Positions 4,712 through 33,805 of a DNA stretch of 64,000 nt are shown here, piece after piece. The DNA comes from an uncultured Fibrobacteraceae bacterium (GTDB taxonomy: Bacteria > Krumholzibacteriota > Krumholzibacteriia > LZORAL124-64-63): positions 15,860 to 79,859 of the forward strand of contig CAZTWK010000004.1 of NCBI GenBank assembly GCA_964617805.1, given 5' to 3'. Position 1 is the stretch's first letter. The number at the start of each line of letters is the position of its first letter. Both the position numbers and the translations under genes were made by a program. Under the pieces are notes generated by a model that saw only the letters and a list, made by a program, of their open reading frames with translations, made no database searches and was not told the origin of the DNA.

Positions 4712-6967
4712 TCAATCCCCCCGCGAGACATCCCCCCGCGAGACACGCCGTTCGCAATGGGGCCAGCGGTTCCGCAGCTGCCCCCGCAGGGTGGCGCCGT
4801 CGGTGGCCGGGGCCTCGCAGGCGCCGAAGCGGCAGACGTAGGCGGCCGGCGCGTCGTCGAGGGCCGTCTTGCCCCGGGCGCCCGGCAGCAGGGCGGCCAG
4901 GTCGTCGCCGGGTCCGCCCGCCGGCACCGCCGACAGCACCGCGTAGTGGGGATCCAGCTCCCAGAAGGCCGCGCGCAGGGCGGCGGTCCGCTCGGCGGCG
5001 GGATCGCCGGCGATCACCACCTCGTAGTGGGGCCCGTGGTACAGGGACGCGGCGTCGGCCCACCAGGCCATCTCCAGGCCCGCGCGGGCCAGCCAGTCGC
5101 CGTGGCGGGCGAGGATCTCCCCCACCCGTTCGCGCCCGGCGGGATCGCCGGCCAGGGCCGCCTCGCGCAGCAGGGCGTGCAGCATGGCCGAGGCCCCCGA
5201 GGGCTCCACGCTGTCGAAGAGGTCCACGCGGCGGCCGAGGGGCGCCTCGCCGCCGGCGGCGGTCAGGAAGAAGCCGCCCGCGGGGTCGGCGAAGAGCTCG
5301 CCGGCGGTGGCGAGCAGCTCCCGCGCCCGACGCAGGTCCCGCGGGTCGCCGCCGGCCTGGTAGAGGTCGAGCAGCCCGCCGGCCAGCAGGGCGTAGTCGT
5401 CGAGGATGCCCTCGCCGCTGCGCACGCCGTCGGTCGACGCGCGGCAGAGGCGGCCGTCGTCGTCGCGGTGCAGCTCCCAGAGGCGGTCGGCGGTGCGGCG
5501 CGCCGCCTCGAGATAACGGGCGTCGCCCAGCACGGCGTGGCCGCGCGCGAAGGCCGACAGGGCCAGGCCGTTCCAGGCGGTCACCAGCTTCCGGTCCAGG
5601 CCCGGCCACGTGCGCGCGGCGCGGTGGTCGTACAGGGCCTGGCGATGGCGATCGAAGAGACCGGCCATCTCGGCCTCGTCGCGGCCGAACTCGGCGGCCA
5701 CTTCCACGGGCGACACACGGCGTGTGAGGATGGACTTGCCCTCGAAGTTGCCCCCCTCGGTCACGCCCAGCAGGCTTGCCAGGACGGGGCCGTCCTCGGG
5801 GCCGGCCACCGCCGCGATCTCCGCCGGCGTCCACACGTAGAAGCTGCCCTCCTCGCCCCCGCTGTCCGCGTCGTAGCTGGCGTAGAAGCCGCCCGCGGGA
5901 TCGCTCAGGTCGCGCAGCATGAAGTCGAGCAGGTCCACGGCGATTTCCCGGTAACGCGCGTCGTCGAAGACCGTGGCGGCCTCCAGGTAGAGGCTGGCGA
6001 GCTGGGCGTCGTCGTAGAGCATGATCTCGAAGTGGGGCACCAACCAGGTGCGCTCGACGGTGTAGCGGTGGAAGCCGCCGCCCAGGTGGTCGTGGATACC
6101 GCCGCTGCCCATGGCCGACAGGGTGTGCCGGATGGCCGCCGCGAGTTCCGGGTCGCCGTTGCGGCGGTACTGGTGCAGCAGGAAGCGCCAGCGCAGCGGG
6201 GTGGGGAACTTCTGCTCCTGGCGGAAGCCGCCCCAGGTCTCGTCGTAGCTCTCGAGGGCCTCGGCGGCCAGGGCAGCCAGGGCCTCCGGTCCGGGCACCG
6301 CGTCCCCCTCGCGGACGATGTCGCGGGACAGGTGCTCGGCCACCCGCTTCGCCTGGCCCACGAGCTCGTCGCGTCGTTCGTCATAGGCGGTCGCGATGCT
6401 GCGGCAGAGGTGCAGGAACGGGTCGCGGGGAAAGTAGGTGCCCCCGAAGAAGGGCTCCAGGTCGGGCGTGAGGAAGGCGGTCAGGGGCCAGCCGCCGCGC
6501 CCGGTCATGGCCTGCACGGCCTCCATGTACACGGCGTCCAGGTCGGGGCGCTCCTCCCGGTCCACCTTGATGCAGACGAAGCGGGCGTTGACCAGGGCCG
6601 CCACCGCGTCGTCCTCGAAGACCTCGTGCTCCATCACGTGGCACCAGTGGCACGAGGCGTAGCCGATGGACAGGAAGATGGGCTTGTCCTCCTCGCGCGC
6701 CCGCGCCAGCGCCGCCTCCCCCCACGGATACCAGTCCACGGGGTTGTGGGCGTGCTGGCGGAGGTAGACGGAGCTCTCGTCGCGCAGGTGGTTGCCCTGG
6801 GCGCGGATCTGCGCGGGCGTGCGAAGCCCGTCGTCGCGGTCGGTCATGGCGGCTCCCGTGCACACGGCCAGGAGCGCCAGGAACGCGGCCGTGCGCAGAA
6901 GTGGCAAGACACGGCGTCGGCGCGAAGGCGCCGCCGCCTTATTGAGAACGGTTTTCATTCTGCACAT
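4712..6967 (-). CDS. thioredoxin-domain protein, DUF255/YyaL family (N-terminal thioredoxin-like fold plus six-hairpin glycosidase-like domain), secreted
   Basis: 751 aa. Signal peptide, then the hallmark DUF255 motif IGYASCHWCHVMEHEVFED. Long alpha-helical C-terminal domain. Confidence 0.8.
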   Translation of the reverse strand: MCRMKTVLNKAAAPSRRRRVLPLLRTAAFLALLAVCTGAAMTDRDDGLRTPAQIRAQGNHLRDESSVYLRQHAHNPVDWYPWGEAALARAREEDKPIFLSIGYASCHWCHVMEHEVFEDDAVAALVNARFVCIKVDREERPDLDAVYMEAVQAMTGRGGWPLTAFLTPDLEPFFGGTYFPRDPFLHLCRSIATAYDERRDELVGQAKRVAEHLSRDIVREGDAVPGPEALAALAAEALESYDETWGGFRQEQKFPTPLRWRFLLHQYRRNGDPELAAAIRHTLSAMGSGGIHDHLGGGFHRYTVERTWLVPHFEIMLYDDAQLASLYLEAATVFDDARYREIAVDLLDFMLRDLSDPAGGFYASYDADSGGEEGSFYVWTPAEIAAVAGPEDGPVLASLLGVTEGGNFEGKSILTRRVSPVEVAAEFGRDEAEMAGLFDRHRQALYDHRAARTWPGLDRKLVTAWNGLALSAFARGHAVLGDARYLEAARRTADRLWELHRDDDGRLCRASTDGVRSGEGILDDYALLAGGLLDLYQAGGDPRDLRRARELLATAGELFADPAGGFFLTAAGGEAPLGRRVDLFDSVEPSGASAMLHALLREAALAGDPAGRERVGEILARHGDWLARAGLEMAWWADAASLYHGPHYEVVIAGDPAAERTAALRAAFWELDPHYAVLSAVPAGGPGDDLAALLPGARGKTALDDAPAAYVCRFGACEAPATDGATLRGQLRNRWPHCERRVSRGDVSRGD

Positions 6968-7054
6968 GATAGTCGCAATGGAACCTTCTGCACCTCCCGG
7001 TTCAACGACGGCAAGCCCTTCCTCGTGGACGGGTCAGCTTTGATCCAACATCAA

Positions 7055-7198
7055 GAACAGATGAGTGGAGACGCTTCAGTCCGGGCGTCGGGAGGGGCCT
7101 GGAGCCACGGATGACGGATGGCCCCGCACGCCGAGCTGCCCGGCGACAGGACGTCGCCGGGCGGCGCCCCGGGCTGAAGCGTCTCCACTCATCTGTTC
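7055..7198. repeat. structured palindromic repeat, copy 3 (inverted orientation): 25-bp perfect outer stem, inner hairpin, diverged core
   Basis: gaacagatgagtggagacgcttcag (7055-7079) is the exact reverse complement of 7174-7198. Inner hairpin cccggcgac-aggac-gtcgccggg at 7139-7161. Core resembles copies at 20.5 kb and 52.1 kb (tggctccag motif). Confidence 0.6.
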
Positions 7199-7233
7199 GT
7201 GTTGATGATCACCAGGCATACGCGTCCACGCGC

Positions 7234-8208
7234 CTAGGACTTGCGCCCGACGATCACCTGGCTGTGCACGGCCACGTCGACGATCTCGAACTCGGCGAAA
7301 CCGGCGGCGCCCAGGGCCGCGACGGTCTCGGCGCGCGTGTAGGAGCGCCCCTGCTCGCTGCCCACCAGCATGTTCACGGCGAAGCGGGCGGCGAAGGGGG
7401 GCGCACAGCGGTCGTCGTCCAGGAAGAAGTCCTTCACCAGGATGCGGCCGCCGGGGACCAGAGCGGCGTGGGCCTTGCGGTAGATCAGGGCGATGGCCTC
7501 GTCGCCGAGGCTGTGGATGATGTTCGACACGTAGACCACGTCGAAGCCCTCGCCGAAGTCGTCCACGAAGTAGTCGCCCTCGACTGCGCGGACGCGGTCG
7601 CCCAGGTCCGTCGCGGCGATCACCTCGCGGGCGATGGCCACCGTCTCGGGCAGGTCGAAGACCACGCATTCGAGATCCGGATGGGCGGCCGCGAAGGTCA
7701 GGGCCGACGTGGCCGGACCGCCGCCGAGGTCCAGCAGGCGGCGGGCGTCGCCCAGGTCGACGCGCTCGACCACCTCGCGGCTCGACCCGCGCGAGATGTC
7801 GCGCATGCCGCAGATGTAGTCGCGGTGCTTGCGGGCCGAGGGGACGCGGGGCACCGGCCGTCCCGTGCGCAACGTCTCCTCGAGGCGCACCCAGCGCTTC
7901 ATGAGGTGGAAGTGGTGGGCGAAGATGTGGGACTGGGAGTTCTCGCCGTCGCGCAGCAGCAGCGCCGCGTTGTCCGGCGGCAGGCCGAAGCGCCCCGTCT
8001 CGTCCCGCGCCAGGACACCGGCCGCCGCCAGGGCGTGTAGCAGGATGTCCACCGCGCGTCCGTCCAGCTCCAAGCGGGCGGCCAGCTCCGCGGGGCGGTG
8101 GGCCTCGCGTCCGAGGGCCTCGATCAGGCCCGTCTGCAGGGCGGTCAGGAGGATGGCGGCGTTCTGATAGCCGTGCGCGAGCGTTTCCAGGCGTTCCTTG
8201 GCGTCCAT
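7234..8208 (-). CDS. class I SAM-dependent O-methyltransferase (with N-terminal dimerisation/winged-helix domain)
   Basis: 324 aa. LDLGGGPAT SAM-binding glycine motif. Overall plant/bacterial O-methyltransferase family architecture. Confidence 0.75.
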   Translation of the reverse strand: MDAKERLETLAHGYQNAAILLTALQTGLIEALGREAHRPAELAARLELDGRAVDILLHALAAAGVLARDETGRFGLPPDNAALLLRDGENSQSHIFAHHFHLMKRWVRLEETLRTGRPVPRVPSARKHRDYICGMRDISRGSSREVVERVDLGDARRLLDLGGGPATSALTFAAAHPDLECVVFDLPETVAIAREVIAATDLGDRVRAVEGDYFVDDFGEGFDVVYVSNIIHSLGDEAIALIYRKAHAALVPGGRILVKDFFLDDDRCAPPFAARFAVNMLVGSEQGRSYTRAETVAALGAAGFAEFEIVDVAVHSQVIVGRKS

Positions 8209-8317
8209 GGCGGGCTCCTTCGGTTGGTCGTCCCGGACCCGATTCTAAGGGCTGTCCCGTGCATGGCAAGACCGCTCTGGACGCCGACGCGCCGGCAGCG
8301 CCGAAAAAACGGGGAGG

Positions 8318-8350
8318 GCCCTGCGGCCCTCCCCTTCGCGTGTCCGTGCG
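8318..8350 (-). terminator. intrinsic terminator downstream of the rhodanese lipoprotein gene
   Basis: Hairpin ggggagggcc-ctgc-ggccctcccc. Read on the minus strand it is followed by TTTTTT. Confidence 0.5.
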
Positions 8351-8357
8351 GGCGAGG

Positions 8358-10223
8358 TTAGGGGATCGGCGTCGTTTCGAGCGGGAAGTCGTTCTGGGCG
8401 CCGGCGCCCCACTTGTGTCCCAACAGGTCGTCGTAGAACAGGTTGTTGGAACCGAACTTCAGCGACAACGCCTCGTAGCCCAGCATGTTCAGCGCCGCGG
8501 TGATCTGGCTGCTGTGCTGTCCGGTCCAGCAGTAGACCACGATGGGCATGTCCGTGGGCAGATGGCCCAGCATGGTCTCCATGCTCATGCTCGCGTAGGG
8601 CGTGAACTGGAAGGCGCCCGGGATGTGGCCCGGCACGCCGTCTTCGCCGACGCCCAGATAATCGTCCTCGTTGAAGTAGTTGACGACGAAGTAGTCCTCG
8701 AGGTTGTCCATGATGTCGGCGTACATCACGCCCTGGAAGCCCTCGCCGAGCATCCAGGCCACGCGGTCGGCCACCACGGTGCCGGCGTCGTAGCCGGCGA
8801 GCTCCGGATAGGCGTAGCCCACGAGGTCGCCGTTGTTGTTGTCGGTCTCGGCCACGGCCAGGGTGTTGTCCACGTTGTTGTTCCACGGACCGCTGAGGGT
8901 CGTGTTCCAGGCGGACATGCCGAACTTGAGGCTGCTCACGTCCTCGTAGCCCAGCAGCTCCAGGGAGATCTTGGCGTGGCCGGCGCTCTGGCCGGTGTAG
9001 CAGGCGACCACCATGGGCAGGTCGACCGGGATGGTCGTGCCCACGTCGGTCAGCAGCGTCGACAGCGACGAGTGGTAGGCGCCCGTGATGTGGCCGGCGT
9101 CGTAGTCGGTCTGGCTGCGGATGTCGATGACCGTGTAGTCCTCGAGGTTGTCGTAGAGGGCCTGCGCGCCCAGCACGCCGGGGCAGTCGCCGTTGTCGTT
9201 GACGTAGTCGACGACGGCGGCTTCCATGGCCGCGAACACCGGCGTCGGCACGCTGCCGATCTCCAGCTCGAAGTCGTAGGAGGCGCTCCACTTGTGGCCG
9301 GTCAGCAGACTGTGGAACAGGTTGTTGGAACCGAACTTGAGCGAGTAGGCCTCGTAGCCCAGCAGATTCAGGTAGGCCGTGATCTGCGAGGAGTGCTGAC
9401 CGGTCCAGCAGTAGACGATGATCGGCGTGTCCGTGGGCAGGTTGTCCAGCATCTGGTCGTCGCCGAGGCTGGCGTAGGGCGTGAACTGGAAGGCGCCGGG
9501 GATGTGGCCCGGCACGCCGTCTTCGCCGTTGCCGAGGTAGTCGTTCTCTCCGAAGTAGTTGAGGATGAAGTAGTCGTCGAGGTTGTCCATGATGTCGGCG
9601 TAGCTCTTGCCCTTGAAGCCCTCGTTGAGCATCCAGGCCACGCGCTCGGCCACCACCGTGCCCGCGTCGTAGCCGCTGAGGGCGGGGAAGTCGTGGGTGC
9701 TCAGGTCGCCGTTGTTGTTGTCGGTCTCGGGCGCGGCGAGGTTGTCGCCGCAGTTGGTGGTCCACTTGTCCAGCGAGGGGCTCCAGGAGGACATGCCGAA
9801 CTTCAGGCTGTTGACGTCGTCGTAGCCCATCAGCTCCATGGCGATCTTGGCGTGGCCGGCGCTCTGGCCGGTGTAGCAGGCCACCACGTAGGGCTTGTCC
9901 GCGGGGATGGCCTTGGCCGCCAAGTCGGCCAGCAGCGTGCCGAGCGACGAGTGGTACGCGCCGGGGATGTGGCCGGCGAGGTAGTCCGCTTCCGAGCGGA
10001 TGTCGATGACCGTGTAGTCCTCGAGGTTGTCGTGGAGGTTCTGGGCGTCGAGCACGCCGGGGCACTGGGCGTTGTCGTTGACGTAGGCCTTGCCAGCCGC
10101 CACCATGGCCTCGAACGCCGTTTCCTCGGGGGTCGGCGACGTGCCGTCGTCGGAGCAACCCCAGACGGCCACCATGGCGATCAGCAGCAATGCCGTCCAC
10201 ATCAAGCGCTTCTGCATTCTCAT
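8358..10223 (-). CDS. lipoprotein with four rhodanese-like sulfurtransferase domains (internal tandem duplication of a two-domain unit)
   Basis: Lipobox VWGC after the signal peptide. Two ~290-aa halves are clearly homologous. Each half carries candidate active-site loops CYTGQSAGHAK and CWTGQHSSQ. Good SD (GAGGAG) before the start. Confidence 0.8.
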   Translation of the reverse strand: MRMQKRLMWTALLLIAMVAVWGCSDDGTSPTPEETAFEAMVAAGKAYVNDNAQCPGVLDAQNLHDNLEDYTVIDIRSEADYLAGHIPGAYHSSLGTLLADLAAKAIPADKPYVVACYTGQSAGHAKIAMELMGYDDVNSLKFGMSSWSPSLDKWTTNCGDNLAAPETDNNNGDLSTHDFPALSGYDAGTVVAERVAWMLNEGFKGKSYADIMDNLDDYFILNYFGENDYLGNGEDGVPGHIPGAFQFTPYASLGDDQMLDNLPTDTPIIVYCWTGQHSSQITAYLNLLGYEAYSLKFGSNNLFHSLLTGHKWSASYDFELEIGSVPTPVFAAMEAAVVDYVNDNGDCPGVLGAQALYDNLEDYTVIDIRSQTDYDAGHITGAYHSSLSTLLTDVGTTIPVDLPMVVACYTGQSAGHAKISLELLGYEDVSSLKFGMSAWNTTLSGPWNNNVDNTLAVAETDNNNGDLVGYAYPELAGYDAGTVVADRVAWMLGEGFQGVMYADIMDNLEDYFVVNYFNEDDYLGVGEDGVPGHIPGAFQFTPYASMSMETMLGHLPTDMPIVVYCWTGQHSSQITAALNMLGYEALSLKFGSNNLFYDDLLGHKWGAGAQNDFPLETTPIP

Positions 10224-10323
10224 CACTCCTCAGTCGAGCCCGCGGGCTCGGGGTTGTGGAGCGGCGCGGGCCGCCCCGTGCTAACGGAGACCGGGCGCGG
10301 CAAACGCCCGGCCGCTATACGCG

Positions 10324-11820
10324 TCATTCTTCCTCTTCCGGAAAGGATTCCGGGATCACGATGCCGACGTTCGCGTCGTGGTCCGGCAACGGCGTGACGC
10401 CGTCCTCGTCGTAGAGATCCGACACGCGCAACAGGTAGCCCTCGGGCGCGTCGGGCGATAGATGGCAGGCGTCGGAGCAGGACTGGCCCGCCTCGACCGT
10501 GGTCTGCGGCGTGTTGCGCAGGATGTTGTGGGGCGACGCGTAGGTCCAGGTCGGCTCGTCGAGATAGCCGGGCAGATCCAGGCCCCAATCCGCGAAGGTG
10601 CCGGGATCGGTGGGCACGTGCCTCACCACGGAGAAGTCGTACTCATCCCGGTACGGGCTCGGATTCCGCGCGATCTTGAACTGGATGCGGCTGGGATCGA
10701 TCTCGAACTTCGCTCCCTCGTCTGCCACCAGGTTGTGGCAGTTCGTGCAGTTCTTGTAGGGTTGCGAATGGCAGACCTGGCACTGGAGGTTCACGTCGGG
10801 CACGCCCACGTGCGCCTCGTGGAACTCGTTGTCCCACGCGCCGTCGAGGCCCTCGCCGTGGCAGTCCTCGCAACGGGGCATGGTGGCCACCTCGTAGCGG
10901 TGCTCGTAGTGGTCGCCGGCGTGCTGGCCATCGCCGTGCATCTCCTCCGCGCTGTGGCAGTTCTCGCACTTCATGCCGGCGCTGCGGTGCAGGTCGGGCA
11001 CGTTGCCCTCGAGTTCGCCCTTGAAATCGACCCCGACACGGCTGCCGTGACAGGCGGTGCACTGCTCGTTCATGTCCGGCGAGGCCCGGAAGCGGTGCGA
11101 GTAGTAGGAGCCGATCTTGGGGAAGCCGCCGCCCACGCTGTTGGGCCGGCCGATGTGGCACTGGCCGCAGGTGGTGTGGCAGCCGCCGCACTTGTTGTCG
11201 AAGTAGGTTTCGTAGCCCGACCCCTCGAAGACGCAGCGCCCGCGCGTCTCGATGGCGCGCTTCTCGCCCCAGAGATTGGTGTGCAGGCTGTTGGCGGTGG
11301 CCGCGGCCTCCGCCTCGTGGCACCCGGCGCAGGCGGAGTCGGCGAAGTCCTCCTCGTGGCAAGCGACGCAGCCGGACGGCCCGACGGCGCTGGGATCGGC
11401 GATCATGCCGTCATGGGCTTCGGCCATGTCGTCGAACGTGTTGTCGGGCTGACCCCCGTGGCAGTGCTGGCACGATAGCGGGTGCGGCACCAGGTCGCCC
11501 TCGTAGTCGGGGCCGTGCGCGCTGGTCAGGAAGCGGGTGGCGTTGGTGCCCCTGATGATGACCTTCTCCCAAGCCTCCAGCTCGGGTACGTCGCCGCCTC
11601 AGCCGTCCTGCTTGTGGGGCACGACCGCCTTGCTGCCCCCCGCGTCGGCCAGGGCCGCCTGGAGCATCTCCTCGCTCTCGTGGCAGCCGAGACAGGTCAG
11701 ATCGGTCAGGTGATCGCCCTCGCCCGGATCGAGCAGTTCGTTGGAGGTGTCGTGTTCGCACCCCCACAGGCAGGCCAGCGCCAGCAACGACATGGCGCTT
11801 ACGGTGATGACTCTGTTCAT
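10324..11820 (-). CDS. multiheme c-type cytochrome lipoprotein (about 12 CXXCH) interrupted by one in-frame TGA at 11599-11601: candidate selenoprotein or readthrough gene
   Basis: ORF 11599..11820 encodes lipoprotein signal MNRVITVSAMSLLALACLWGC plus CLGCH. ORF 10324..11490 encodes 11 further heme motifs (CQHCH, CVACH, CAGCH, CGGCH, CGQCH, CTACH, CENCH, CEDCH, CQVCH, CTNCH, CSDACH) with no signal peptide of its own. The two are in the same frame, separated only by a TGA and 36 sense codons. The downstream ORF start in the track is a GTG. Confidence 0.6.
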
Positions 11821-12464
11821 CGGGCTCTCCCGCGTTGGGCCGCGTCCCGGCTCGTGGAACCGTCGTGGAGTCCGCGAGCGAAGATCGGCACGTTGTTGCA
11901 GATGACCGTTTCGGCGTCGAGCCTGGTTCCGTCCAGGTCGCCCCAGACGTCGGCGCTGAGGGCGCAATCCATGACCATCCCCACGAAGCAGCGTCCGGTG
12001 ATGTAGGGGTCCACCTCGCGGATCTCTCCGGCGGAGATCCGGCGGGACAGTTCGTCGCGCAGGAACTCGATATAGGGCAGCCGGACTTCCTTGAAGAGCA
12101 CCGCGGAGCCCGGGCCGCTGTCCAGACGGTTGAAGTGCATCAGGCGAATCAGTTCGGGATCGCGGTCGGCCAGGGCGAGGATGTGCCTCGCCAGCATGAT
12201 GAGCATCTCCTCGATCCCTTCCCGGTCGGCCCGTCCGCTCAGGTAGGCGCGGATGTCGTGCTGGCGGGCCTTGTCGCGGATCACCTCTTCGTAGAGGTGG
12301 GCCTTGCCGTCGTAGTGGCGATAGATGGCGGCTTCGCTGATGCCGCAGGTGCCGGCGATGAGCCGGATGGAGGTCCCGGCGTAGCCCTTGTCCGCGAACA
12401 GGCGCGAGGCGTTCGCGAGGATCTGACGGCTGCGGCTGCCCGGACTGCCCTTGGCGGTCATCAT
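11817..12464 (-). CDS. TetR/AcrR family transcriptional regulator
   Basis: 215 aa. N-terminal HTH (RQILANASRLFADKGYAGTSIRLIAGTCGISEAAIYRHY). Stop overlaps the downstream cytochrome start (ATGA). Confidence 0.85.
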   Translation of the reverse strand: MMTAKGSPGSRSRQILANASRLFADKGYAGTSIRLIAGTCGISEAAIYRHYDGKAHLYEEVIRDKARQHDIRAYLSGRADREGIEEMLIMLARHILALADRDPELIRLMHFNRLDSGPGSAVLFKEVRLPYIEFLRDELSRRISAGEIREVDPYITGRCFVGMVMDCALSADVWGDLDGTRLDAETVICNNVPIFARGLHDGSTSRDAAQRGRAR

Positions 12465-12473
12465 CGCATCCCC

Positions 12474-14405
12474 CTAGAACCGGCCCGACAGCGCGAGGGT
12501 GTAGAGGTCCAGGATGTAGTCGTCCCACCTGTTCTCGTCGAACTCGTGGCGCCGGAAGGCCGCATGGGCCGTCTTGCCCGGCGAGAACTCCCAGCTCGCG
12601 CGCACGAGCAGGCGATTGTAGTCGGACATGACGTCGTCGGACACGCCGCCGGTCCCCGCGGCGTCCTCGTGCCGCACGCCCTCGTAGTGGCCCTCCACGC
12701 GCAGCGTCTCGCCGAGCTTGAGGGTCGCGCCGGGGGCGAAGCGCAGGGTGGTGCCGTCGTAGACCAGCGGCGCCATGCCCGCTTCCGCGTCCGGGCCGTC
12801 GGTGAGCCGGTACTCCTCGCGGCCCAGCGACACCGTCCCCAGCAGGGTTAGCCGGTCGTTCGCCAACCAGCTCGCCGCCACGTAGCCGCGACGGGCCCGC
12901 CAGGTCGTCTCGGTGTTCTCGAGATCGAGCCGCCGGAAGGTCCGTTCGACGACCCGGTGCCCCAGATCGACGCGCAGGTCGCGCAGGGGCCGCGCCTGCA
13001 GGGCCACCCGGCCGCCGTACTGCTCGCGTTCGCGATCGCCCATCCAGAAGTGCCAGGGCTCGCCGGAGGTCGTATCCCAGGTGTCGAGCTGCTCCACTTC
13101 GGAGCCGCGCCATTCGGCGCGCGCCTTCAGGACGGTGCGGGCGCCGAGGCGTACCCGCCCGCGGAAACCGACCTCCTGGTCCCGCCTGTCCTGGGCGGTG
13201 GTCTGGCTATCGCCCTCCAGGCCGCTGCCGGGGACGCCGTCCAGGGCCCGGGTCTCGTCCAGATCGGAGCTGCGGTACTTGTAGTGGAGCCGGAGACGCG
13301 TCCGGTCCAGCGCCGTAGTCGTCAGCACGGCGCGGAGATCCCGGCTAGACCGGCTGCGATCGGCGGCCTGGAGAGTCGCGTCGCCGAAGTCGACCCGGCC
13401 CTCGCTGTTCAGGCTGCGCAGGCCGGCCGACAGGCGCAGGGTCGAGGCGCGACCCAGCTTCTTGATCAGGCCGAGCCGGCCGGTATCCGTGTTCGCGTCG
13501 CCCGGGGACGTGAGCCGATTTCCCTGGTAGGTCTCGAACTGGGCGCTCTCCAGGCGCGAGGTCGCGGCGGCGCCCAGGACGCGCAACCCGTCGCCCACGT
13601 CCAGGGACGCCTTGAGCCGGGCGCTCCAGAGCTCGCCGTCGGCCTCGTAGGCGTGGCGAGTGTCGAGGGTGCGGGTACCGTCCGCGCCGCGATGGCTCAG
13701 ACGCAGATCGCCCGCGAAACCGCCGCGGGCATAGGCGCCGCGCAACCAGAATTCCCGGGCGGTCGTGTCGAAGGCCCTGGACGCCGGCGGCGCTTCGCCG
13801 GCGACCAGCATGCCCCGGGCCAGGCTGCTCTTCTCGCCCGAGCGCCTGGTCTGCACGGCGCCCGCCGACACGTCGAGACCGTCCCGGACATGGTGGCGCA
13901 CGCTGATCCGGGCGCGGTTCCAGTCGAGGACCGGCGCCGGGTCGAGGGCGGGGGGCGGAGGGTCGAGCCGGAAGACGGGCGCCCGCATCTCGCTGGTATC
14001 GTCGTAGTGGTGGTGGAAGCTGCGGTACGAGGCCGCGATGGCGTACCGGCCGGGCGCGCCCCAGTCCAGGGCGACGGCGCCGCTCGCGCCGGCCCCGCTG
14101 CCGTAGTCGCCCGCGCCCCGCAGGGACAGCCGGCGCCCGTCGTCCCGCACCCGCCGCCAGCCGAAGAGGCCCGCGTGACGGTGCTCGTCCACCCGCCACG
14201 CGTCCTCCGCCGCCTTGGCGCCACTGCCGTAGGCGTCCATGAATTCACCGGCGAGGGCCCAGTGGTTGCCGGTGCCGACCAGGTCGCCCGCGGGCGCCCA
14301 GATCCGGCCGGCCTGGACGGGCAGATCGTCCGCCGCCGCGACGGCGCTCACGATCAGAAGCGCCGCGGCCAGGACCATGCTGTAGGTCGAGCTCGTCGTC
14401 TTCAT
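12474..14405 (-). CDS. outer-membrane beta-barrel of the MtrB/PioB (porin-cytochrome) type
   Basis: 643 aa. Signal peptide. Many alternating amphipathic beta-strand segments rich in R, D, G and aromatics. C-terminal residue F. Begins 13 nt after the decaheme cytochrome gene. Confidence 0.7.
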   Translation of the reverse strand: MKTTSSTYSMVLAAALLIVSAVAAADDLPVQAGRIWAPAGDLVGTGNHWALAGEFMDAYGSGAKAAEDAWRVDEHRHAGLFGWRRVRDDGRRLSLRGAGDYGSGAGASGAVALDWGAPGRYAIAASYRSFHHHYDDTSEMRAPVFRLDPPPPALDPAPVLDWNRARISVRHHVRDGLDVSAGAVQTRRSGEKSSLARGMLVAGEAPPASRAFDTTAREFWLRGAYARGGFAGDLRLSHRGADGTRTLDTRHAYEADGELWSARLKASLDVGDGLRVLGAAATSRLESAQFETYQGNRLTSPGDANTDTGRLGLIKKLGRASTLRLSAGLRSLNSEGRVDFGDATLQAADRSRSSRDLRAVLTTTALDRTRLRLHYKYRSSDLDETRALDGVPGSGLEGDSQTTAQDRRDQEVGFRGRVRLGARTVLKARAEWRGSEVEQLDTWDTTSGEPWHFWMGDREREQYGGRVALQARPLRDLRVDLGHRVVERTFRRLDLENTETTWRARRGYVAASWLANDRLTLLGTVSLGREEYRLTDGPDAEAGMAPLVYDGTTLRFAPGATLKLGETLRVEGHYEGVRHEDAAGTGGVSDDVMSDYNRLLVRASWEFSPGKTAHAAFRRHEFDENRWDDYILDLYTLALSGRF

Positions 14406-14418
14406 GACCTTGCGCCTC

Positions 14419-15336
14419 CTAGTCGCGGAACGTCGGCGAGACGTTCGAACCGTGGATTTCCGTATGGCAGTCGTAGCAACGGGCCTCGCCGCCCAGGTAA
14501 CCGCCGTGATTGGCGTCGCCCAGCTCCCAGTTGTCGTCGGGACCGAAGGACGTCTCGAAATGGCACTGCAGACAGAGCGTGCCGCCGTCGGTGACCAGCA
14601 GCTTGTCGTTCATCGAGCCGTGGGGCCGATGGCAGGCGACGCAATCCTCGCCGGCGACGCCTTCGTGCTCGAAGACGAAGGGGCCGGACATCTCCGTATG
14701 GCAGGCGAGACAGACGTCGCTCATCCCGTTCCAGCCCACGTCGGGGAAGTCCGCGTGGGGATCGTGGCAATCGCCGCAGGTCACGGTGCCTTCCAGCACC
14801 CTGTGCCGGAAGGGCAGCCGGAAGTCGGAGGCCTGCGACCCGTGGCATTGGAGGCAGAACTCCGACGGATTGCGATAGTGCGACGGCGGCGTGACGTCCC
14901 CCGTGAAGTGCATCTGATCGAGGTGGCAGTCGGCGCAGCCCACGCCGCTCCCGGCGTGGGGGCCCGCGTGCCAGTCGACGCGCCGGTTCGCGTGGCACTG
15001 GGTGCACATGGCCGCGCGGTCGGCCTCGGACATCCGGGAGATGGCCTCCGCCCCGAGGATGAACCCGTCCCCCTCCTGCTCCACGTGCAGGCTGCCGGGG
15101 CCGTGGCAGGCCTCGCAGGCGTCGATGCCGGTGCCGGGCACCGTGGCCGCGCGCGACACCGCGTGGGGTGAATGCGCCGCGGGATCCTCGACGTCGTCGT
15201 GGCAGTCGAGGCAGGCGTCAGCGCCCACGTAGGCGGCCTCGGCCGGCACCCCGAGCCCTTCGCTGTACGTGCCAGTCGACGCCTGCGCCGCGATCAGGAC
15301 GAGTATCCCCGCCATCGGCAGGATCAGACGCTGCAT
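14419..15336 (-). CDS. periplasmic decaheme c-type cytochrome, MtrA/PioA-like
   Basis: Start MQRLILPMAGILVLIAAQA with strong SD GGAGGT. Ten CXXCH motifs: CLDCH, CEACH, CTQCH, CADCH, CLQCH, CGDCH, CLACH, CVACH, CLQCH, CYDCH. Confidence 0.85.
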   Translation of the reverse strand: MQRLILPMAGILVLIAAQASTGTYSEGLGVPAEAAYVGADACLDCHDDVEDPAAHSPHAVSRAATVPGTGIDACEACHGPGSLHVEQEGDGFILGAEAISRMSEADRAAMCTQCHANRRVDWHAGPHAGSGVGCADCHLDQMHFTGDVTPPSHYRNPSEFCLQCHGSQASDFRLPFRHRVLEGTVTCGDCHDPHADFPDVGWNGMSDVCLACHTEMSGPFVFEHEGVAGEDCVACHRPHGSMNDKLLVTDGGTLCLQCHFETSFGPDDNWELGDANHGGYLGGEARCYDCHTEIHGSNVSPTFRD

Positions 15337-15408
15337 GGGTGACCTCCACGCGAGAAGTGAACGTTCACTGATCGATTCAACGATATTTCCCGCAGGTGAC
15401 CTGGGCAA

Positions 15409-15480: not shown

Positions 15481-15628
15481 CAGGCCGATGAAGCATGTAC
15501 TGGACAGCCCGACATCGCGCCTCGGCCAGGCGGTTTCGACTTCAGGAAAGCCGTTCAGGGCCGATATCATACTCGTCCAGGCGCCCCGCGTGAATCGCCG
15601 TGCGCCGGTGCCCCATTCCGGAGGATAG

Positions 15629-20861: not shown

Positions 20862-23800
20862 CTACTTGATCAGCATCATCTGCTTGGTCTCGGAAAGACC
20901 GTTCGCGTTCAGCTGATAGTAGTAGGTGCCGGAGGCAACCTGGCGACCGGTCAGGTCGCGTCCGTCCCAGACCACGGCGTGTTCGACCGCGGGGAGGTCG
21001 GCGTCGACCAGGGTGCGGACCAGGCGTCCGGCCAGGTCGTAGACCTTCAGGCTCACGTGGCCGGTCTGCGGCACGGCGAACTTGATGGTCGTCGACGGGT
21101 TGAACGGGTTCGGGTAGTTCTCGCCCAGCGTGAAGCGCTGCGCCACGTCCCCGACCGCGGTCGTGCCGCCGCCGTAGGTGATGTTCATGCACCACTCGTT
21201 GAGGGTGCCGATGTCGGCGCCGGCATTGTCGCTGATGGACAGCGTCCAGTCGCCGTCCAGATCGACGCCCGCGAAGCCGGACAGGGCCTCGGCCGGGGCC
21301 AACTCGGTCGGGTACCAGCCGTAGATGTTGTCGGCGCCCGAGCCGCTGCGGTTGTGCAGGCGTACCGTGGTGCCGGTCGGCGAACCCAGATCCACGATCA
21401 GGTCGCCCTGGTAGGTGTGGGTGATGTCCACGAAGACCTCGATGGCGGTCACCGAGGCGCCCAGGCCCAGGGAGACGTTGATCACGTCGCTCACGCCCGT
21501 CGGGTTGTTGTCCGGGATGGCCAGGGCCGGCGTGCTGCAGGCCGAGGTCTCGTAGACGTGGGTCAGGACCATGTCGACGCCGGTCAGGGCCTCGCCCTCG
21601 GCGAGCGTGAAGGTCTCGGCGTCGGTGCTCCAGGAGGGACGCGAGGCCGTCACGGTGTAGCCGGCCGCGTAGAGGCTGGTGAACGCGTAGTCGCCGGAGG
21701 GGCCGGTGGTCACGGTGTCGCCGCCGGGCATGAGTTCCACGAGAATGCCGGAATGGTCGGTCGCGCCCTGCAGGGTCACGGTGCCGCTCACCGACGCTGT
21801 GCCCGGGGCCTCGATGGCCAGCAGCCAGTTCACGGCGTTGTGCAGCAGGCTGAGGCCCTCGGTCACCTCGAGCGCGCCGTAGTCGAAGGCGAAGAACACG
21901 ATCTGTCCGCCCACCGGCGAGGGGGTCGGATCGTAGCAGACCACGCTGCCGAGGCCGCTGTAGTTGCTCCAGTCGCCGACCAGCTGCCCGTCGCCCGCCA
22001 CGGTCACGCGGTCGGCGTCGCCGTAGCCGCTGTAGGCGCAGGCGATGGGACCGACGATCGTGTTGGGCACGCTCATCACGCTGTGCAGGGGATCGGCCAC
22101 GGTCACGTTGCCGCTGCTGTCCCCGTTCCAGTCCGTGATGTGAAGCACTGTCGAGGCGAAGGCCGCCTCGTCGTTGTGGTAGTAGGCGATCTCGCCGCCC
22201 TCGATGAGCAGGTGCCCGCCGGCGTTGACGAAGTCGACCAGCTCGGCGCGGAAGGCCGTGTCGCCCAGCTCCGCCGTCTTGTCGGCCATCGACACCAGGA
22301 TCATGTCGTAGTCGAACCAGGTGCCGGGATCGGTGACGCCGAGATCCTCGAGGACCACACTGTAGCCGAGTCCCTCGAGGTCGGTGACCATGCCGGCCGC
22401 CGTGCGCGACGGGAGCGCGTGGTAGGGCGGGGCGATGAGCTGGCCGGTCTTGGCATCCAGCTTGCCCGGCAGGTCGCGGTCGAACTTGGCGTTGTCGTCG
22501 ATGATCAGGATGTCGCCAGCGGTGGGATCGAGGACGAAGTCCTGGACGACCGCGGGCGCGTCGATCGTCACCGCCACGGTGACGGGCGAGTGGTGGTAGG
22601 CCCGCACGTTCACATCGTAGGTAAAGTAGGTCAGGCCGGTGACGGTGTAGGTGCCGTCCACGCCGCTGACGACCTCGTCGACCAGGGCGCCGTTGTCCGT
22701 GCGGTAGACCTTCACGGTGCCCTCCAGCGGCGTACCGGTGCCGGTCTCGGTGATCACGCCGCTCAGATCGCCGGCCGGGGCCGCGTCGAGAGACGGGTCG
22801 ATCACGTTGGGACCGAAGGTCAGGAAGAACGGCAGCTCGTAATGCAGGAAGCCGAAGTGGTCGATGGACAGGATGTAGTCGTTCACCGCGATGTCACCGC
22901 CGAAGTCGTAGACGCCGCTGCCGTCGGTCACGGTCTCCATCAGGAAGCCGCCCATGTCGTCGAGCAGCTGGACCGTCACGTCGGGCATGGGCAGCGAGCC
23001 ACCGGCGTAGACGGTGCCGGTCAGGGTGCCGAAGGCCTCGACCACGTCGAAGGCCTCGCTGTAGACGTCGTAGCCGCTCACGGCGATGGTGCCGACGACC
23101 TCGCCCAGATCGGCGGGCGTGGCCTCCAGCGAGAGGTCCGTCGTGGACAGCTCGCTGCCGTCGGGCAGGACCACGTACAAGGTATGACCGGGCTCGCCCA
23201 CGGTGACGTGCATCGTGCCGGGCATGTTCTGCCCGTACATGTCGGTCATGCCGAAGGTGGTGGTCACGTTGAGGTCCGGCGCGGTCAGCGGCAGGGCGTT
23301 GACCGTGATGGCCTGCGAGAAGAGCAGGTAGGCCTCGGCCGGGTCCTGGCCCACGATGTCCAGGGTCGGGCCGAAGGGGTAGTCGACGTTGATCACGGCC
23401 ACGCCGTCGACGCCGGTGGCGACCGGGACGGTGCTGTAGCCGAAGCCGTCGGCCCACACGTCGATGCCCTCCAGAGGCGTGATGCCGTCGGGGCCGTAGA
23501 CCGTGACGGTGATGTCCGTCGGCGTGTTGGCGTCGATGACCATGGGATCGATCACGACGACCGAGGGGTTGATGGCCGGCAGATCCGCCTGGTAGGTGCC
23601 CAGGTTGAAGCCGGTGATCGTCAGGGTGACGTCGCCCGGGGTCAGCACGGGCGTGTCGAGTGTGATCGTGGCGAGGCCGGCGCCGTCGGCGTCCGCGACG
23701 CCGTGGGTGACGCCGTCGCGCCACAGGACGGCGCGCGCGCCGGCGGGCAGGCCGCTCACCTCGAAGGTGGCCGCACCCAGGTGCACGACCGGCAGGTGCG

Positions 23801-25532
23801 TCGGCGCCAGCGCCGTCGGCTCGAAGGAGCGGACGACCAGCGAGCAGTCACCGAAGATCTGGTACTGCTCGACCAGGGCGTGGCCCTCGCCGCCGGTACC
23901 GGGATAGGCGTCCAGGGCGGCCATGGAACCGTAGAAGAACAGCGCGCCCAGGGTGCTGGTGGTCTCGGCCACGAAGAGGTCGATGGCCTCGTCCGCCATG
24001 ACCGTGGGCGGCACCCACGCGCAGGTGCCCCAGGAGGAGAACATGCCCACCGCGCCGTAGGGCTCGGTCGGCGAGCCGGCGCGCAGGAAGGCCTCGGCCA
24101 TGCTGGGGTTGAGGCTGGTGGTGCCGTTGGAGCAGGACACGTCGATCACCCAGGGATGCATGCCCGCGTTGGTCAGCAGGGGCATGTCGCCGTTGCTCCA
24201 GGGCGGGTTGCTCCAGCTGGTGCCGCTGCCGTGGCCCATGTAGTACATCAAGCTGCGGCCCTCGTTGACGGCGGCCGCGATCTGGGCGGTGGTGCCGCTG
24301 GGCTGGTAGATCTGGTCCACGTGGGTGAAGCCGTAGGCCAGCAGGTCGTCGCGGATCCAGTTGCAGCGCTCGGCGTCCGAGGGGCTGCCCTCGTTCGACG
24401 CCAGGCCGGCGGCCTTGCTGTACCAGTCGGAGGCCGCGCCGAAGTCGGGATCGCGCTCGTAGGCGATGAACTTGTTGATCTGCGTCTGCAGCTCGGTGCT
24501 GTTGTTGGCCGAGATGCGCGAGACGAAGAGATCGGCGTAGAAGTCGCCGCCGGAGACCATGGCGTAGGTCGCGTCGGAGCCGTTGCCCTCGGCGGTGCCG
24601 GTGTGGGTCGGGATCTGGGCGATGTCGCCCACCAGCACCACGTAGGTCAGGCCGTCGGGGCCGGCGTAGCGGGTGTCGATGGCCGTCTGGATGCCCGCCA
24701 CCGAGCCGCCCACCGAGGAGGTGGTGATGACCTCGACGGGGATGCCCTTCTGCTGCTTCCACTCCACGAAGGGCGTCAGCGGACCCTGCAGCGCGTCGTC
24801 GACGACCACGAGCATGGGGCCGTCGGTGCCCACGGCGACGTACTTGTCGGCGCCGTAGTTGGCGAAGAGGTGGTCGTAGATGCGGTCGAAGGCGGGATCG
24901 ACGGTGCCGGCCTCGACGGCCAGCTCGTTGACGCCGCTGCCCTCGGTGACGATCTCGAGGCGCATGCTGCGCAGGACCATCAGGACGCCGCGGTCGGCGT
25001 CGTAGCGGAAGGCGTTGACCCGGACGGAGACGCCGCGCATGTCGCGCACGATGAAGGCGTCGCCCAGCTCGGTCACGGCCTGGGGATAGACGCCGCCCTC
25101 GCCGTAGAAGGCGCCGTGCCGGTAGGGCACGGTGGAGGGATCCACCTCACGCGAGATGTGTCCCCGGGACGGGACCACGGGATCGACGCTCAGCTCGTTC
25201 CACCGGGCGTCGAGCACGCGGACCGAGGGCATGCCCCGGCCGGCGATCGCGATGCTCTGGGTGATGTACGGGAGTTCGGGGAGTCCGGCCTCCATGTGCC
25301 AGACATGGCCGGGCACGGCGATGAGCGAGTGCGGGGAGCCGTCGATGTCCACGGTGGACAGCTCGAAACCCGGCACCTCGATATCCATGGTCACCGAGGA
25401 CGGCGCGCCGGAGGCGGCGATCCGCGGCTCGACCTGTGTCTGACTGCCCTGGTCGATCCACGCGGCGCTCGCCGTGGCGGTCATACCGAACATCAATACC
25501 AAGGCAAAAATAGCCATAATCCTGGGACGCAT
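20862..25532 (-). CDS. secreted multidomain C25 (gingipain-like) cysteine peptidase with P-domain and T9SS C-terminal sorting domain
   Basis: 1556 aa. SD AAGGAG. Signal peptide. Gingipain propeptide/catalytic region (YVVLVGD, MYYMGHGSGTSW, VIDVSCSNG). Carboxypeptidase-regulatory-like domains. Proprotein-convertase P-domain (THTYQGDLIVDLGSPTGTTVRLHNRSG). C-terminal Por-type secretion domain (ENYPNPFNPSTTIKF...YYYQL). Confidence 0.85.
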   Translation of the reverse strand: MRPRIMAIFALVLMFGMTATASAAWIDQGSQTQVEPRIAASGAPSSVTMDIEVPGFELSTVDIDGSPHSLIAVPGHVWHMEAGLPELPYITQSIAIAGRGMPSVRVLDARWNELSVDPVVPSRGHISREVDPSTVPYRHGAFYGEGGVYPQAVTELGDAFIVRDMRGVSVRVNAFRYDADRGVLMVLRSMRLEIVTEGSGVNELAVEAGTVDPAFDRIYDHLFANYGADKYVAVGTDGPMLVVVDDALQGPLTPFVEWKQQKGIPVEVITTSSVGGSVAGIQTAIDTRYAGPDGLTYVVLVGDIAQIPTHTGTAEGNGSDATYAMVSGGDFYADLFVSRISANNSTELQTQINKFIAYERDPDFGAASDWYSKAAGLASNEGSPSDAERCNWIRDDLLAYGFTHVDQIYQPSGTTAQIAAAVNEGRSLMYYMGHGSGTSWSNPPWSNGDMPLLTNAGMHPWVIDVSCSNGTTSLNPSMAEAFLRAGSPTEPYGAVGMFSSWGTCAWVPPTVMADEAIDLFVAETTSTLGALFFYGSMAALDAYPGTGGEGHALVEQYQIFGDCSLVVRSFEPTALAPTHLPVVHLGAATFEVSGLPAGARAVLWRDGVTHGVADADGAGLATITLDTPVLTPGDVTLTITGFNLGTYQADLPAINPSVVVIDPMVIDANTPTDITVTVYGPDGITPLEGIDVWADGFGYSTVPVATGVDGVAVINVDYPFGPTLDIVGQDPAEAYLLFSQAITVNALPLTAPDLNVTTTFGMTDMYGQNMPGTMHVTVGEPGHTLYVVLPDGSELSTTDLSLEATPADLGEVVGTIAVSGYDVYSEAFDVVEAFGTLTGTVYAGGSLPMPDVTVQLLDDMGGFLMETVTDGSGVYDFGGDIAVNDYILSIDHFGFLHYELPFFLTFGPNVIDPSLDAAPAGDLSGVITETGTGTPLEGTVKVYRTDNGALVDEVVSGVDGTYTVTGLTYFTYDVNVRAYHHSPVTVAVTIDAPAVVQDFVLDPTAGDILIIDDNAKFDRDLPGKLDAKTGQLIAPPYHALPSRTAAGMVTDLEGLGYSVVLEDLGVTDPGTWFDYDMILVSMADKTAELGDTAFRAELVDFVNAGGHLLIEGGEIAYYHNDEAAFASTVLHITDWNGDSSGNVTVADPLHSVMSVPNTIVGPIACAYSGYGDADRVTVAGDGQLVGDWSNYSGLGSVVCYDPTPSPVGGQIVFFAFDYGALEVTEGLSLLHNAVNWLLAIEAPGTASVSGTVTLQGATDHSGILVELMPGGDTVTTGPSGDYAFTSLYAAGYTVTASRPSWSTDAETFTLAEGEALTGVDMVLTHVYETSACSTPALAIPDNNPTGVSDVINVSLGLGASVTAIEVFVDITHTYQGDLIVDLGSPTGTTVRLHNRSGSGADNIYGWYPTELAPAEALSGFAGVDLDGDWTLSISDNAGADIGTLNEWCMNITYGGGTTAVGDVAQRFTLGENYPNPFNPSTTIKFAVPQTGHVSLKVYDLAGRLVRTLVDADLPAVEHAVVWDGRDLTGRQVASGTYYYQLNANGLSETKQMMLIK

Positions 25533-32941: not shown

Positions 32942-33805
32942 TCAAAACGATGACTCAAGACCTCCGAGACAGGGTTCGGCATCCGCCCCGAAACCCAGCA
33001 ATTCCATGATTTCCACCCTCAGCGACGGCGGCGGCGGCTGACGATGGCCGGCGGGTTCGAGCTCCGAACGCGTCTCGGCGCGCTCCGCGGCGTAGGCGAT
33101 CCCCAGGAAGGGCACGTCCGCGTGGACCGCGGCGCTCACTTCCCGCCGGTGGATCTGCAGCATCCGGCCGCGCGGCAGGTCTATGCGCGTCGTGTCGCCG
33201 GCGACCAGGGTGAACTGGTCGCAGAGCAGGTCCGCCTCGCCGACCACGCGCGTGGTCCGGCCCTCCTCGGTGCGGGTGTCGGCCTCGAAATCGGTCTCCA
33301 GGAAGGCGCCGGTCAGGGGATCGTCGCGCCACTGCTCGGGCGGCAGGGTGCGGGCCTCCCCCTCCTGCCACTGCACGACCTCCCGCACGTGGTCGACCAG
33401 CGACCCCGTGCGCGCGGCCAGCCCCTTGTCGAGGGTCAGGCGCAGTCCCTCCCCCGGCACGGGCTCGCGGCCGTCGGGGCTCTCGGCCAGGGGCAGCACC
33501 TCGATCAGCCAGGCCGCCTCCGACTCGCCCACGCACTGGATGCGCACGACCTCCACGCGCCGGCGTCCCCCTTCGAGGGTCGTGGCCTGGTAGTCCGCCC
33601 GGCAGCCGGGCTCGATGCGCATCACCGCCTCGGGCTGGCGCCACAGGGTGAACACGTCCAGGGCCCGGGCGGCGTCGGCCCCGGCCAGCCCCAGCAGGCA
33701 CAGGCCACATAGCGCGACGGCCGTCGCTCGGTGGCTCCGGCCGTCGGCGCGCGCGTCCGCGGGGACGTGCCGCTCAGTGTTCGATCTTGGCCCAGTACGT
33801 GTCAT
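32942..33805 (-). CDS. hypothetical secreted protein (start uncertain, possibly an internal GTG near 33718)
   Basis: 287-aa ORF. Hydrophobic signal-like segment VALCGLCLLGLAGADAARA. Overlaps the upstream gene by 31 nt if the annotated ATG is used. Confidence 0.45.
   Translation of the reverse strand: MTRTGPRSNTERHVPADARADGRSHRATAVALCGLCLLGLAGADAARALDVFTLWRQPEAVMRIEPGCRADYQATTLEGGRRRVEVVRIQCVGESEAAWLIEVLPLAESPDGREPVPGEGLRLTLDKGLAARTGSLVDHVREVVQWQEGEARTLPPEQWRDDPLTGAFLETDFEADTRTEEGRTTRVVGEADLLCDQFTLVAGDTTRIDLPRGRMLQIHRREVSAAVHADVPFLGIAYAAERAETRSELEPAGHRQPPPPSLRVEIMELLGFGADAEPCLGGLESSF

Follow-up and report, generated by a model that had tools for sequence, protein, structure and literature searches.

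The gene at 8358 to 10226 on the minus strand of a 64,000-nucleotide stretch of DNA (the window; contig CAZTWK010000004.1 of assembly GCA_964617805.1, from an uncultured bacterium of the phylum Krumholzibacteriota) encodes a lipoprotein built from four rhodanese domains, each with a cysteine at a sulfurtransferase-type active-site position. Its tightest, near-obligate partner is a multihaem cytochrome encoded directly upstream, whose reading frame passes through an in-frame TGA codon at a selenocysteine position. Both genes stand in what looks like a single operon with a predicted MtrAB-type electron conduit across the outer membrane. The coupling to an MtrAB-like conduit and to a selenocysteine cytochrome for which NCBIfam has no model, rather than the cysteine count, is the noteworthy part of this system. 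The features of the rhodanese gene are as follows, with residues counted from GTG 10226.

8358..10226, minus: four-rhodanese lipoprotein gene, 622 aa from GTG 10226, TAA stop at 8360-8358
10155..10226, minus: signal peptide and lipobox V-W-G-C24 (Cys codon 10157-10155), with S-D-D next to give CSDD
9261..10136, minus: unit 1 (residues 31-322), domain A with C117 (9878-9876, CYTGQSA) and domain B with C273 (9410-9408, CWTGQHS)
8376..9251, minus: unit 2 (residues 326-617), 70% identical to unit 1, domain A with C409 (9002-9000) and domain B with C566 (8531-8529)

A reading of the DNA letters alone (the sequence-only reading) had described a tandem duplication of a two-rhodanese unit, and comparison of the two halves bears this out. 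Residues 1-325 and 326-622 share 207/295 identities (70%) with an E value of 5e-149 (BLASTP), direct DNA repeats recur in the gene every 876-879 nt (80-85% identity), and the halves are 80% identical in nucleotides when codon-aligned. The internal duplication is far beyond chance. Codon identity between the halves was also considered as a sign of recent duplication and set aside as uninformative, since G+C at third codon positions (GC3) is 96%. The Pfam model Rhodanese (PF00581) matches four stretches of the protein (E 3e-49; 166 bits against a cutoff of 22.2), so the repeats are rhodanese folds and each unit of ~290 aa comprises two domains, A and B. Because the two domains of one unit also resemble each other (35-39% identity, E ~1e-17) and their cysteines align, the duplication appears to have taken place in two rounds, from A to A-B and then from A-B to A-B-A-B.

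The cysteine loops that the sequence-only reading had picked out, one CYTGQSA (C117, C409) and one CWTGQHS (C273, C566) in each half, do lie at the active-site position. C117 is aligned with Cys65, the catalytic residue of Escherichia coli GlpE (VVACYTGQS against VMVMCYHGNS), as is C273 of domain B (IIVYCWTGQH; the GlpE loop is CYHGNSS), and C409 and C566 are put at the same position by A/A and B/B alignments. Across 95 aligned full-length homologues none of the four cysteines varies, and the loops are near-invariant as CY[ST]GQSA and CWTGQHS. In an AlphaFold model built from this alignment (predicted local distance difference test score, pLDDT, 93.9; predicted template modelling score, pTM, 0.81), each cysteine is placed where rhodaneses always have it, after the central strand and before the next helix. 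The cysteine is the first residue of a six-residue loop in all four domains; this is the C-X5 length of sulfurtransferases, and the arginine at +6 is absent. Loop length and the missing arginine rule out the phosphatase (Cdc25) and arsenate-reductase types, which have a seven-residue C-X5-R loop. From these alignments we infer that persulfide formation and sulfur transfer would occur at four sites.

Classical tandem rhodaneses (bovine TST, RhdA, SseA/MST) pair an inactive N-terminal domain that lacks the cysteine with an active C-terminal one across a tight interface. The protein departs from them in that both domains of each unit keep an invariant cysteine, and tandem rhodanese enzymes superpose on the model over ~100-130 residues only, with a template modelling (TM) score of at most 0.37. 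At the level of the single domain, the best matches are of the GlpE, PspE and TSTD1 type, with the same loop length and the cysteine in the same place. These are cytoplasmic or periplasmic single domains, whereas here four are concatenated on a lipid anchor. Sud of Wolinella succinogenes (PDB 1qxn), which we take to bind polysulfide sulfur and to serve the respiratory polysulfide reductase, likewise has a single rhodanese domain with one catalytic cysteine, but it is a soluble one-domain homodimer that lacks both lipid anchor and duplication, and its partner is a molybdoenzyme, not a cytochrome. Several rhodanese domains on one chain are found in the four-domain protein 1yt8 of Pseudomonas aeruginosa, the top Foldseek match, and in the three-domain YnjE of E. 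coli. A Desulfitobacterium tandem rhodanese is cited in a passage of PMC6148476 as having two active sites. The likeness to these multi-rhodaneses is partial: some have more than one active cysteine, but only one domain at a time of 1yt8, RhdA, YnjE or MST superposes on the model, with different domain packing, and neither 1yt8 and YnjE nor, in that passage, the Desulfitobacterium protein is described as a surface lipoprotein with an outer-membrane conduit.

These comparisons qualify the earlier remark that four candidate catalytic cysteines on a membrane-anchored protein are unusual for sulfurtransferases. The remark holds in part, but the multi-rhodaneses 1yt8 and YnjE have been solved, the rhodanese lipoprotein ExtH has been described, and the architecture itself is found in 390 species-level genomes. 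It is common in one phylum, and four cysteines on a multi-rhodanese protein are not unprecedented. The 390 matches come from contigs taken at one genome per species and are mostly from Krumholzibacteriota, often mislabelled; a branch at 35-40% identity is found in the cultured Bacteroidota Marinifilum, Draconibacterium and Labilibaculum. Close homologues, at 50-68% identity, number more than 100.

The number of units varies within the family. Among 120 homologues listed, some of which are fragments, two unit matches were found in 110 proteins, three in 5 and one in 6. Units within one protein are on average 69% identical (up to 87%), compared with 60% for the same position and 58% for different positions across proteins. 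A neighbour-joining tree of the units has no deep split between first and second units; many of its clades hold both units from a set of proteins, and the largest position-pure clades have 8-9 members. Residues diagnostic of unit 1 or unit 2 were sought at a 70% threshold; none reached it, and only weak biases such as L83 versus D/N376 appeared, for which reason an ancient duplication with independently diverging halves was rejected. This pattern is the signature expected of units that evolve in concert via gene conversion or unequal crossing-over, which also fits the variation in copy number (one, two or three units per protein), although repeated independent duplication could have given rise to it instead. 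Because it is the two-domain unit that is duplicated and members with one or three units exist, unit duplication is best read as dosage tuning, with more capture sites per anchor.

The 5' end of the gene is better placed than before. The sequence-only reading had ended it at 10223, the next ATG inside the open reading frame (ORF) 8358..10226 and the second possible start. A Shine-Dalgarno sequence, GAGGAG, lies at 10231-10226; it overlaps GTG 10226, is only 2 nt from ATG 10223 and stands 8 nt before ATG 10217. This spacing makes ATG 10217 the most likely start, giving a protein of 619 aa with the same mature form. The 619-aa version is an exact copy of a public database protein (P0001), and the codon usage of the ORF (GC3 0.96) is typical of real genes in this window of ~70% G+C.

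The lipid anchor named in the sequence-only reading is supported as well. A KR n-region and a hydrophobic core lead into the lipobox V-W-G-C24 for signal peptidase II, and the lipobox cysteine is kept in 94/95 aligned homologues with the family consensus [FLMV][WAVT][GA]C. The site follows the bacterial lipoprotein pattern [LVI][ASTVI][GAS]C apart from an atypical W at −2. Tryptophan occupies this position in both lipoproteins of the operon, as VWGC (10155-10166, minus) and LWGC (11749-11760, minus), and, odd as it is by the classical consensus, it is the commonest residue at −2 within the rhodanese family (43/100).

The partner cytochrome is split by its stop codon. ORFs 11599-11820 and 10324-11490 lie in one frame, divided by a TGA at 11601-11599, and reading through it gives a 498-aa lipoprotein (LWGC followed by EHD) that has ~11 haem motifs and includes ...KQDG-U-GGDVPELEAWEKV. 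The motif around this residue, U74, is DG-U-GG-x-VPxLEAWEKV. Immediately before the rhodanese gene, an in-frame stop with conserved flanks occurs in 53 other loci with the full motif. The codon is TGA in every one of them, with no case of a Cys codon, and even relatives at 33-41% identity keep it. The 53 unique cytochrome sequences conserve the lipobox cysteine, ten CxxCH motifs, one CxxxCH motif and the selenocysteine; no other free cysteine is conserved. The TGA is followed, at 11568-11586, by a conserved hairpin that resembles a selenocysteine insertion sequence (SECIS); comparison of four loci shows one compensatory pair in it. Gene callers split the cytochrome into ORFs of 73-76 aa and 360-385 aa at all public loci seen. 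A search of the NCBIfam models gave only a weak match to ExtM, and the cytochrome probably represents a selenoprotein family not yet catalogued.

A second in-frame TGA in the window, at 34964-34962, falls at the PCGU motif of the UshA-like selenoprotein family NF041198, which has been catalogued (PMC13188914). The organism thus decodes selenocysteine, because a catalogued selenoprotein also carries an in-frame TGA. This second selenoprotein (33774-35138, minus) is a fusion of a UshA/SoxB-like metallophosphoesterase and a c554-like multihaem domain, and the called ORF 33774-34940 is cut off at its TGA. No tRNA gene, for tRNA-Sec or otherwise, was found within the window.

The linkage between cytochrome and rhodanese is close. 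Among loci at least 50% identical to the query with upstream sequence, the cytochrome lies 1.26-1.52 kb upstream of the rhodanese gene in 51/53, and the two exceptions are single-unit paralogues with type IX secretion tails. The other genes of the operon recur less often across 82 related loci (TetR 50, barrel 39, decahaem 35), and this difference is what marks the selenocysteine cytochrome as the tightest partner.

Five genes on the minus strand, running from 15408 down to 8358 with short gaps, make up the surroundings of the rhodanese gene, in the order decahaem cytochrome, MtrB-like barrel, TetR regulator, selenocysteine cytochrome and, last, rhodanese.

15566..15594, minus: promoter-like site upstream of the decahaem gene, a consensus match only
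14419..15408, minus: periplasmic decahaem cytochrome of the DmsE/MtrA family, first gene of the operon
12474..14405, minus: outer-membrane protein of 643 aa with a signal peptide, C-terminal ...SGRF and a predicted 26-strand barrel, best match MtrB
11817..12464, minus: TetR-family regulator gene, between the barrel and selenocysteine cytochrome genes, in 50/82 related loci
10324..11820, minus: lipoprotein multihaem cytochrome of 498 aa with ~11 haem motifs, TGA 11601-11599 = U74, directly upstream of the rhodanese gene
11568..11586, minus: SECIS-like hairpin 13 nt past the TGA, with an 8-bp stem and GGA loop
8311..8334, minus: intrinsic terminator-like hairpin 24 nt after the rhodanese stop, with a 10-bp stem (9 G-C pairs) and a T run

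Since a promoter-like site precedes the five genes, a terminator-like hairpin ends them and all lie on one strand with short gaps, they look like one operon. The decahaem cytochrome scores 203.6 bits against the DmsE family model TIGR03508 (cutoff 192.2). The model of the barrel protein (pLDDT 86) has 26 long strands and is matched best by Shewanella MtrB (6r2q_B; E 1.2e-18, TM 0.67), with all other structures at TM 0.45 or below. The protein has no Pfam match and only a faint NCBIfam match, and a profile of its family matched nothing among PDB sequences, so that the likeness to MtrB comes from predicted structure only. The family is very small: an exhaustive search, which also supplied the alignment, gave 52 representatives among 1.84 billion proteins. 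From the fold match to MtrB and the co-encoded DmsE/MtrA decahaem it follows that the two proteins are predicted to form an MtrAB-type trans-outer-membrane electron conduit.

A comparison with the Shewanella operons MtrCAB and DmsEFAB shows the same order and folds: a decahaem cytochrome, a 26-strand barrel and then one or more extracellular lipoproteins. Here, in contrast, the extracellular module would consist of the selenocysteine cytochrome and rhodanese lipoproteins and not of MtrC or a DMSO reductase, and a TetR gene lies inside the operon.

The other close parallel is the extHIJKL cluster of Geobacter sulfurreducens, which encodes the rhodanese lipoprotein ExtH, the porin ExtI, a small protein and ExtKL (PMC6148476; PMC5877670). 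ExtKL was identified in 2026 as MccSep, a pentahaem selenocysteine enzyme with a D-G-U-P loop that acts as a polysulfide reductase essential to sulfur respiration; it has five haem motifs, a C-terminal Ig-like domain that holds the selenocysteine and a Cys-ligated haem 2. The authors of that work leave the route of the sulfur species open and mention possible extra components for sulfur transfer (PMC13510729). Like ExtH (GSU2940), the protein described here is a rhodanese-like lipoprotein encoded with an outer-membrane barrel and a selenocysteine multihaem cytochrome. Both companions of an ExtH-like system are present: the cytochrome, with its 53 loci and SECIS-like hairpin, though it is not of the ExtKL family, and the co-encoded barrel, MtrB-like here and ExtI-like in Bacteroidota. 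The outer-membrane part in this operon differs from ExtI in being MtrB-like, with an MtrA-like decahaem, and not an ExtI-type porin; in Bacteroidota loci, by contrast, the family does adjoin an ExtI-like porin. ExtH is a protein of ~49 kDa (PMC5877670), and the present one has four GlpE-type domains, all with cysteines. The cytochrome, for its part, falls outside the MccSep/ExtKL family in that it has no conserved free cysteine, and the D-G-U tripeptide that it shares with MccSep may be a coincidence. The operon thus resembles extHIJKL in outline without belonging to it.

The rhodanese lipoprotein also has a second gene context, in Bacteroidota. The orthologue of Marinifilum breve is a lipoprotein of 624 aa with four rhodanese stretches. 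Its cluster includes an octahaem cytochrome of the tetrathionate-reductase family (TIGR04315, 577 bits against a cutoff of 375) and a PAS-domain cytochrome b of the thiosulfate-reductase (PhsC-like) type. Two further rhodaneses, a one-domain lipoprotein and a two-domain SseA/ExtH-like protein, are also encoded, as is an ExtI-like porin (Pfam Porin_O_P; NF040900, 61 bits against a cutoff of 150), with a CRP/FNR regulator close by. In Draconibacterium and other Bacteroidales, too, the 35-40% identical orthologue accompanies an octahaem cytochrome of this family. The M. breve cluster was found at 5175-12443 of locus L059, and similar clusters occur at L061, L062, L077-L079, L081 and L082. The porin gene lies 3' of the four-rhodanese gene in about 19 loci; at least 8 loci carry the octahaem and cytochrome b genes. 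Two cytochrome systems that are not related to each other, each linked by family to the reduction of sulfur compounds, have recruited the same rhodanese lipoprotein along with an outer-membrane component.

The location of the protein is suggested by two features of its family. The lipobox is followed by CS(D/E)n in 98/121 family proteins, and CSDDDD (41), CSSDDD (14) and similar variants are found in nearly all lipoprotein members. Experiments have established that CS(D/E)2 brings Bacteroides lipoproteins to the cell surface (PMC6222051), a related surface-export signal has been described in Capnocytophaga (PMC5080379), and the CSDD of the present protein matches the Bacteroides form. Family members that lack a lipobox have instead a plain signal peptide at one end and, at the C-terminus, a type IX secretion domain (Pfam Por_Secre_tail/FlgD_ig). 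Since one family uses two alternative surface-targeting devices, an extracellular location can be argued, and the four-rhodanese lipoprotein is probably an outer-membrane, surface-exposed protein. The type IX paralogues (P0028, P0031, P0050, P0113-P0120 and locus L054 7908-9185) have one or two units and no lipobox. They sit away from cytochrome genes, often in the same genome as the lipoprotein form, and the single-unit paralogues at L054 and L056 have a gene context that holds no cytochromes and gives no functional lead. The window also encodes a gingipain-like C25 peptidase of 1556 aa (20862-25532, minus) with carboxypeptidase-regulatory-like and P-domain repeats and a type IX tail, and thereby points to a type IX secretion system in this organism.

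Taken with the Geobacter parallel, these features suggest a surface sulfane-sulfur carrier that would feed a selenocysteine-haem reductase, a proposal to which we give slightly less than an even chance. In this mechanism, each catalytic cysteine would take a sulfane sulfur from polysulfide, elemental sulfur or possibly a thiosulfate-type donor and hold it as a persulfide or polysulfide. The sulfur would then pass to the selenocysteine of the ~11-haem cytochrome, where it would form a Se-S bond; we infer a direct hand-over from rhodanese cysteine to selenocysteine. Electrons would cross the outer membrane through the MtrA-like decahaem and the MtrB-like barrel to the cytochrome, whose haems would deliver them to the bound sulfur, releasing sulfide outside the cell. 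The rhodanese would thereby serve as the substrate-capture arm of an extracellular chalcogen reductase, a role parallel to that of Sud for polysulfide reductase and to the presumed role of ExtH beside MccSep. The parts of this proposal differ in strength. Sulfur as the substrate is somewhat better than an even bet, and for the reductive direction the chances are evenly balanced. A bolder form, in which a surface rhodanese extracts sulfur from insoluble elemental sulfur or polysulfide for an MtrAB-fed selenocysteine cytochrome, is doubtful; if true, solid sulfur would be respired without import, a trait conserved across Krumholzibacteriota, and a related uptake-type version with an octahaem reductase and an ExtI-like porin would exist in cultured marine Bacteroidota.

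Several observations weigh against the surface carrier. MtrAB-type conduits also run inward in iron oxidisers, so that electrons may flow in either direction. The loops have no basic residues that would favour anionic sulfur donors, and the modelled inter-domain arrangement is unlike any solved tandem rhodanese. The function is carried over from Geobacter by analogy only: the query scores 21.3 bits against the ExtH model NF040901 (cutoff 200), over residues 8-98 only, and is not orthologous to ExtH. The cytochrome has ~11 haems where MccSep/ExtKL has 5, carries its selenocysteine (U74) N-terminally and not C-terminally, and is a lipoprotein; a phmmer search against PDB gave no real match and no relationship to MccSep by sequence. 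Moreover, the CS(D/E)2 signal has been validated in Bacteroidota only, and the host belongs to Krumholzibacteriota. Finally, MccSep in Geobacter is periplasmic, not extracellular (PMC13510729).

This last point also supports the same chemistry facing the periplasm, with a Sud-like carrier on the inner leaflet of the outer membrane that would bring polysulfide sulfur, taken in through the barrel or another porin, to a periplasm-facing cytochrome. The localisation of ExtH depends on the porin ExtI, according to a title cited in PMC13510729, and the Bacteroidota orthologue adjoins an ExtI-like substrate porin and not an MtrB-like barrel, which fits uptake followed by periplasmic handling; the surface-export signal, moreover, was established in Bacteroidota. 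This arrangement is nonetheless unlikely, given that the CSDD-type signals of nearly all lipoprotein members and the type IX tails of others are both surface-targeting, that the lipoprotein encoded after the barrel in MtrCAB-type operons sits outside (6r2q architecture), and that the cytochrome, too, is a lipoprotein, whose first residues, C-E-H-D, are acidic. Electrons might also flow the other way, with the rhodanese mobilising sulfur at the surface from sulfide, thiosulfate or elemental sulfur, the cytochrome oxidising it and the MtrAB-like conduit carrying electrons inward, as the MtrAB homologues MtoAB and PioAB do in iron oxidisers. The His/Cys-haem enzymes TsdA and SoxAX do act oxidatively (PMC13510729). 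The five genes of the operon, however, include no Sox, Dsr or sulfide:quinone oxidoreductase gene, MccSep as the nearest characterised analogue is reductive, and the Bacteroidota orthologues stand under a CRP/FNR-type regulator with reductase-type partners, so that we regard an oxidative role as rather improbable.

A different substrate would keep the reductive direction. The cysteines could bind selenium or tellurium derived from selenite or tellurite, as perselenides, which the cytochrome would reduce to the element in detoxification or respiration. In favour of this, ExtH and ExtM, both models for a "selenite/tellurite reduction operon", give the only weak named matches; Geobacter that has lost ExtI is impaired in reducing selenite and tellurite (PMC5877670), and MccSep also reduces selenite (PMC13510729). 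Yet the physiological role in Geobacter is sulfur respiration (PMC13510729), the Bacteroidota context supplies a tetrathionate-reductase-family cytochrome and a thiosulfate-reductase-type cytochrome b, and selenium oxyanions are rare compared with sulfur species in sediment and sulfidic habitats (habitats taken from record titles), which together make this substrate improbable. That the protein is no carrier at all, but buffers redox state or thiols, binds metal at the surface, or helps to mature or protect the selenocysteine of the cytochrome, is very improbable; non-catalytic rhodaneses typically lose the loop cysteine, and here four are invariant together with the surrounding loop residues.

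The surface carrier, if correct, bears on two questions that are named as open (PMC13510729), namely by what route bacteria reach insoluble elemental sulfur, and how polysulfide crosses the outer membrane or is dealt with there. A rhodanese lipoprotein is tied to multihaem cytochromes and an outer-membrane component in two gene contexts, and with ExtH and MccSep of Geobacter the association spans three phyla. This breadth argues that rhodanese lipoproteins may be a general substrate-capture part of cytochrome-based chalcogen respiration, and the orthologues in cultured Marinifilum and Draconibacterium make the idea open to genetic testing.

Downstream of the operon, past the terminator-like hairpin and a promoter-like site, lie genes for an O-methyltransferase (7234-8208, minus) and a DUF255 thioredoxin-like protein (4712-6967, minus). 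These genes recur in 12-13/82 loci and may be loosely linked to the operon.

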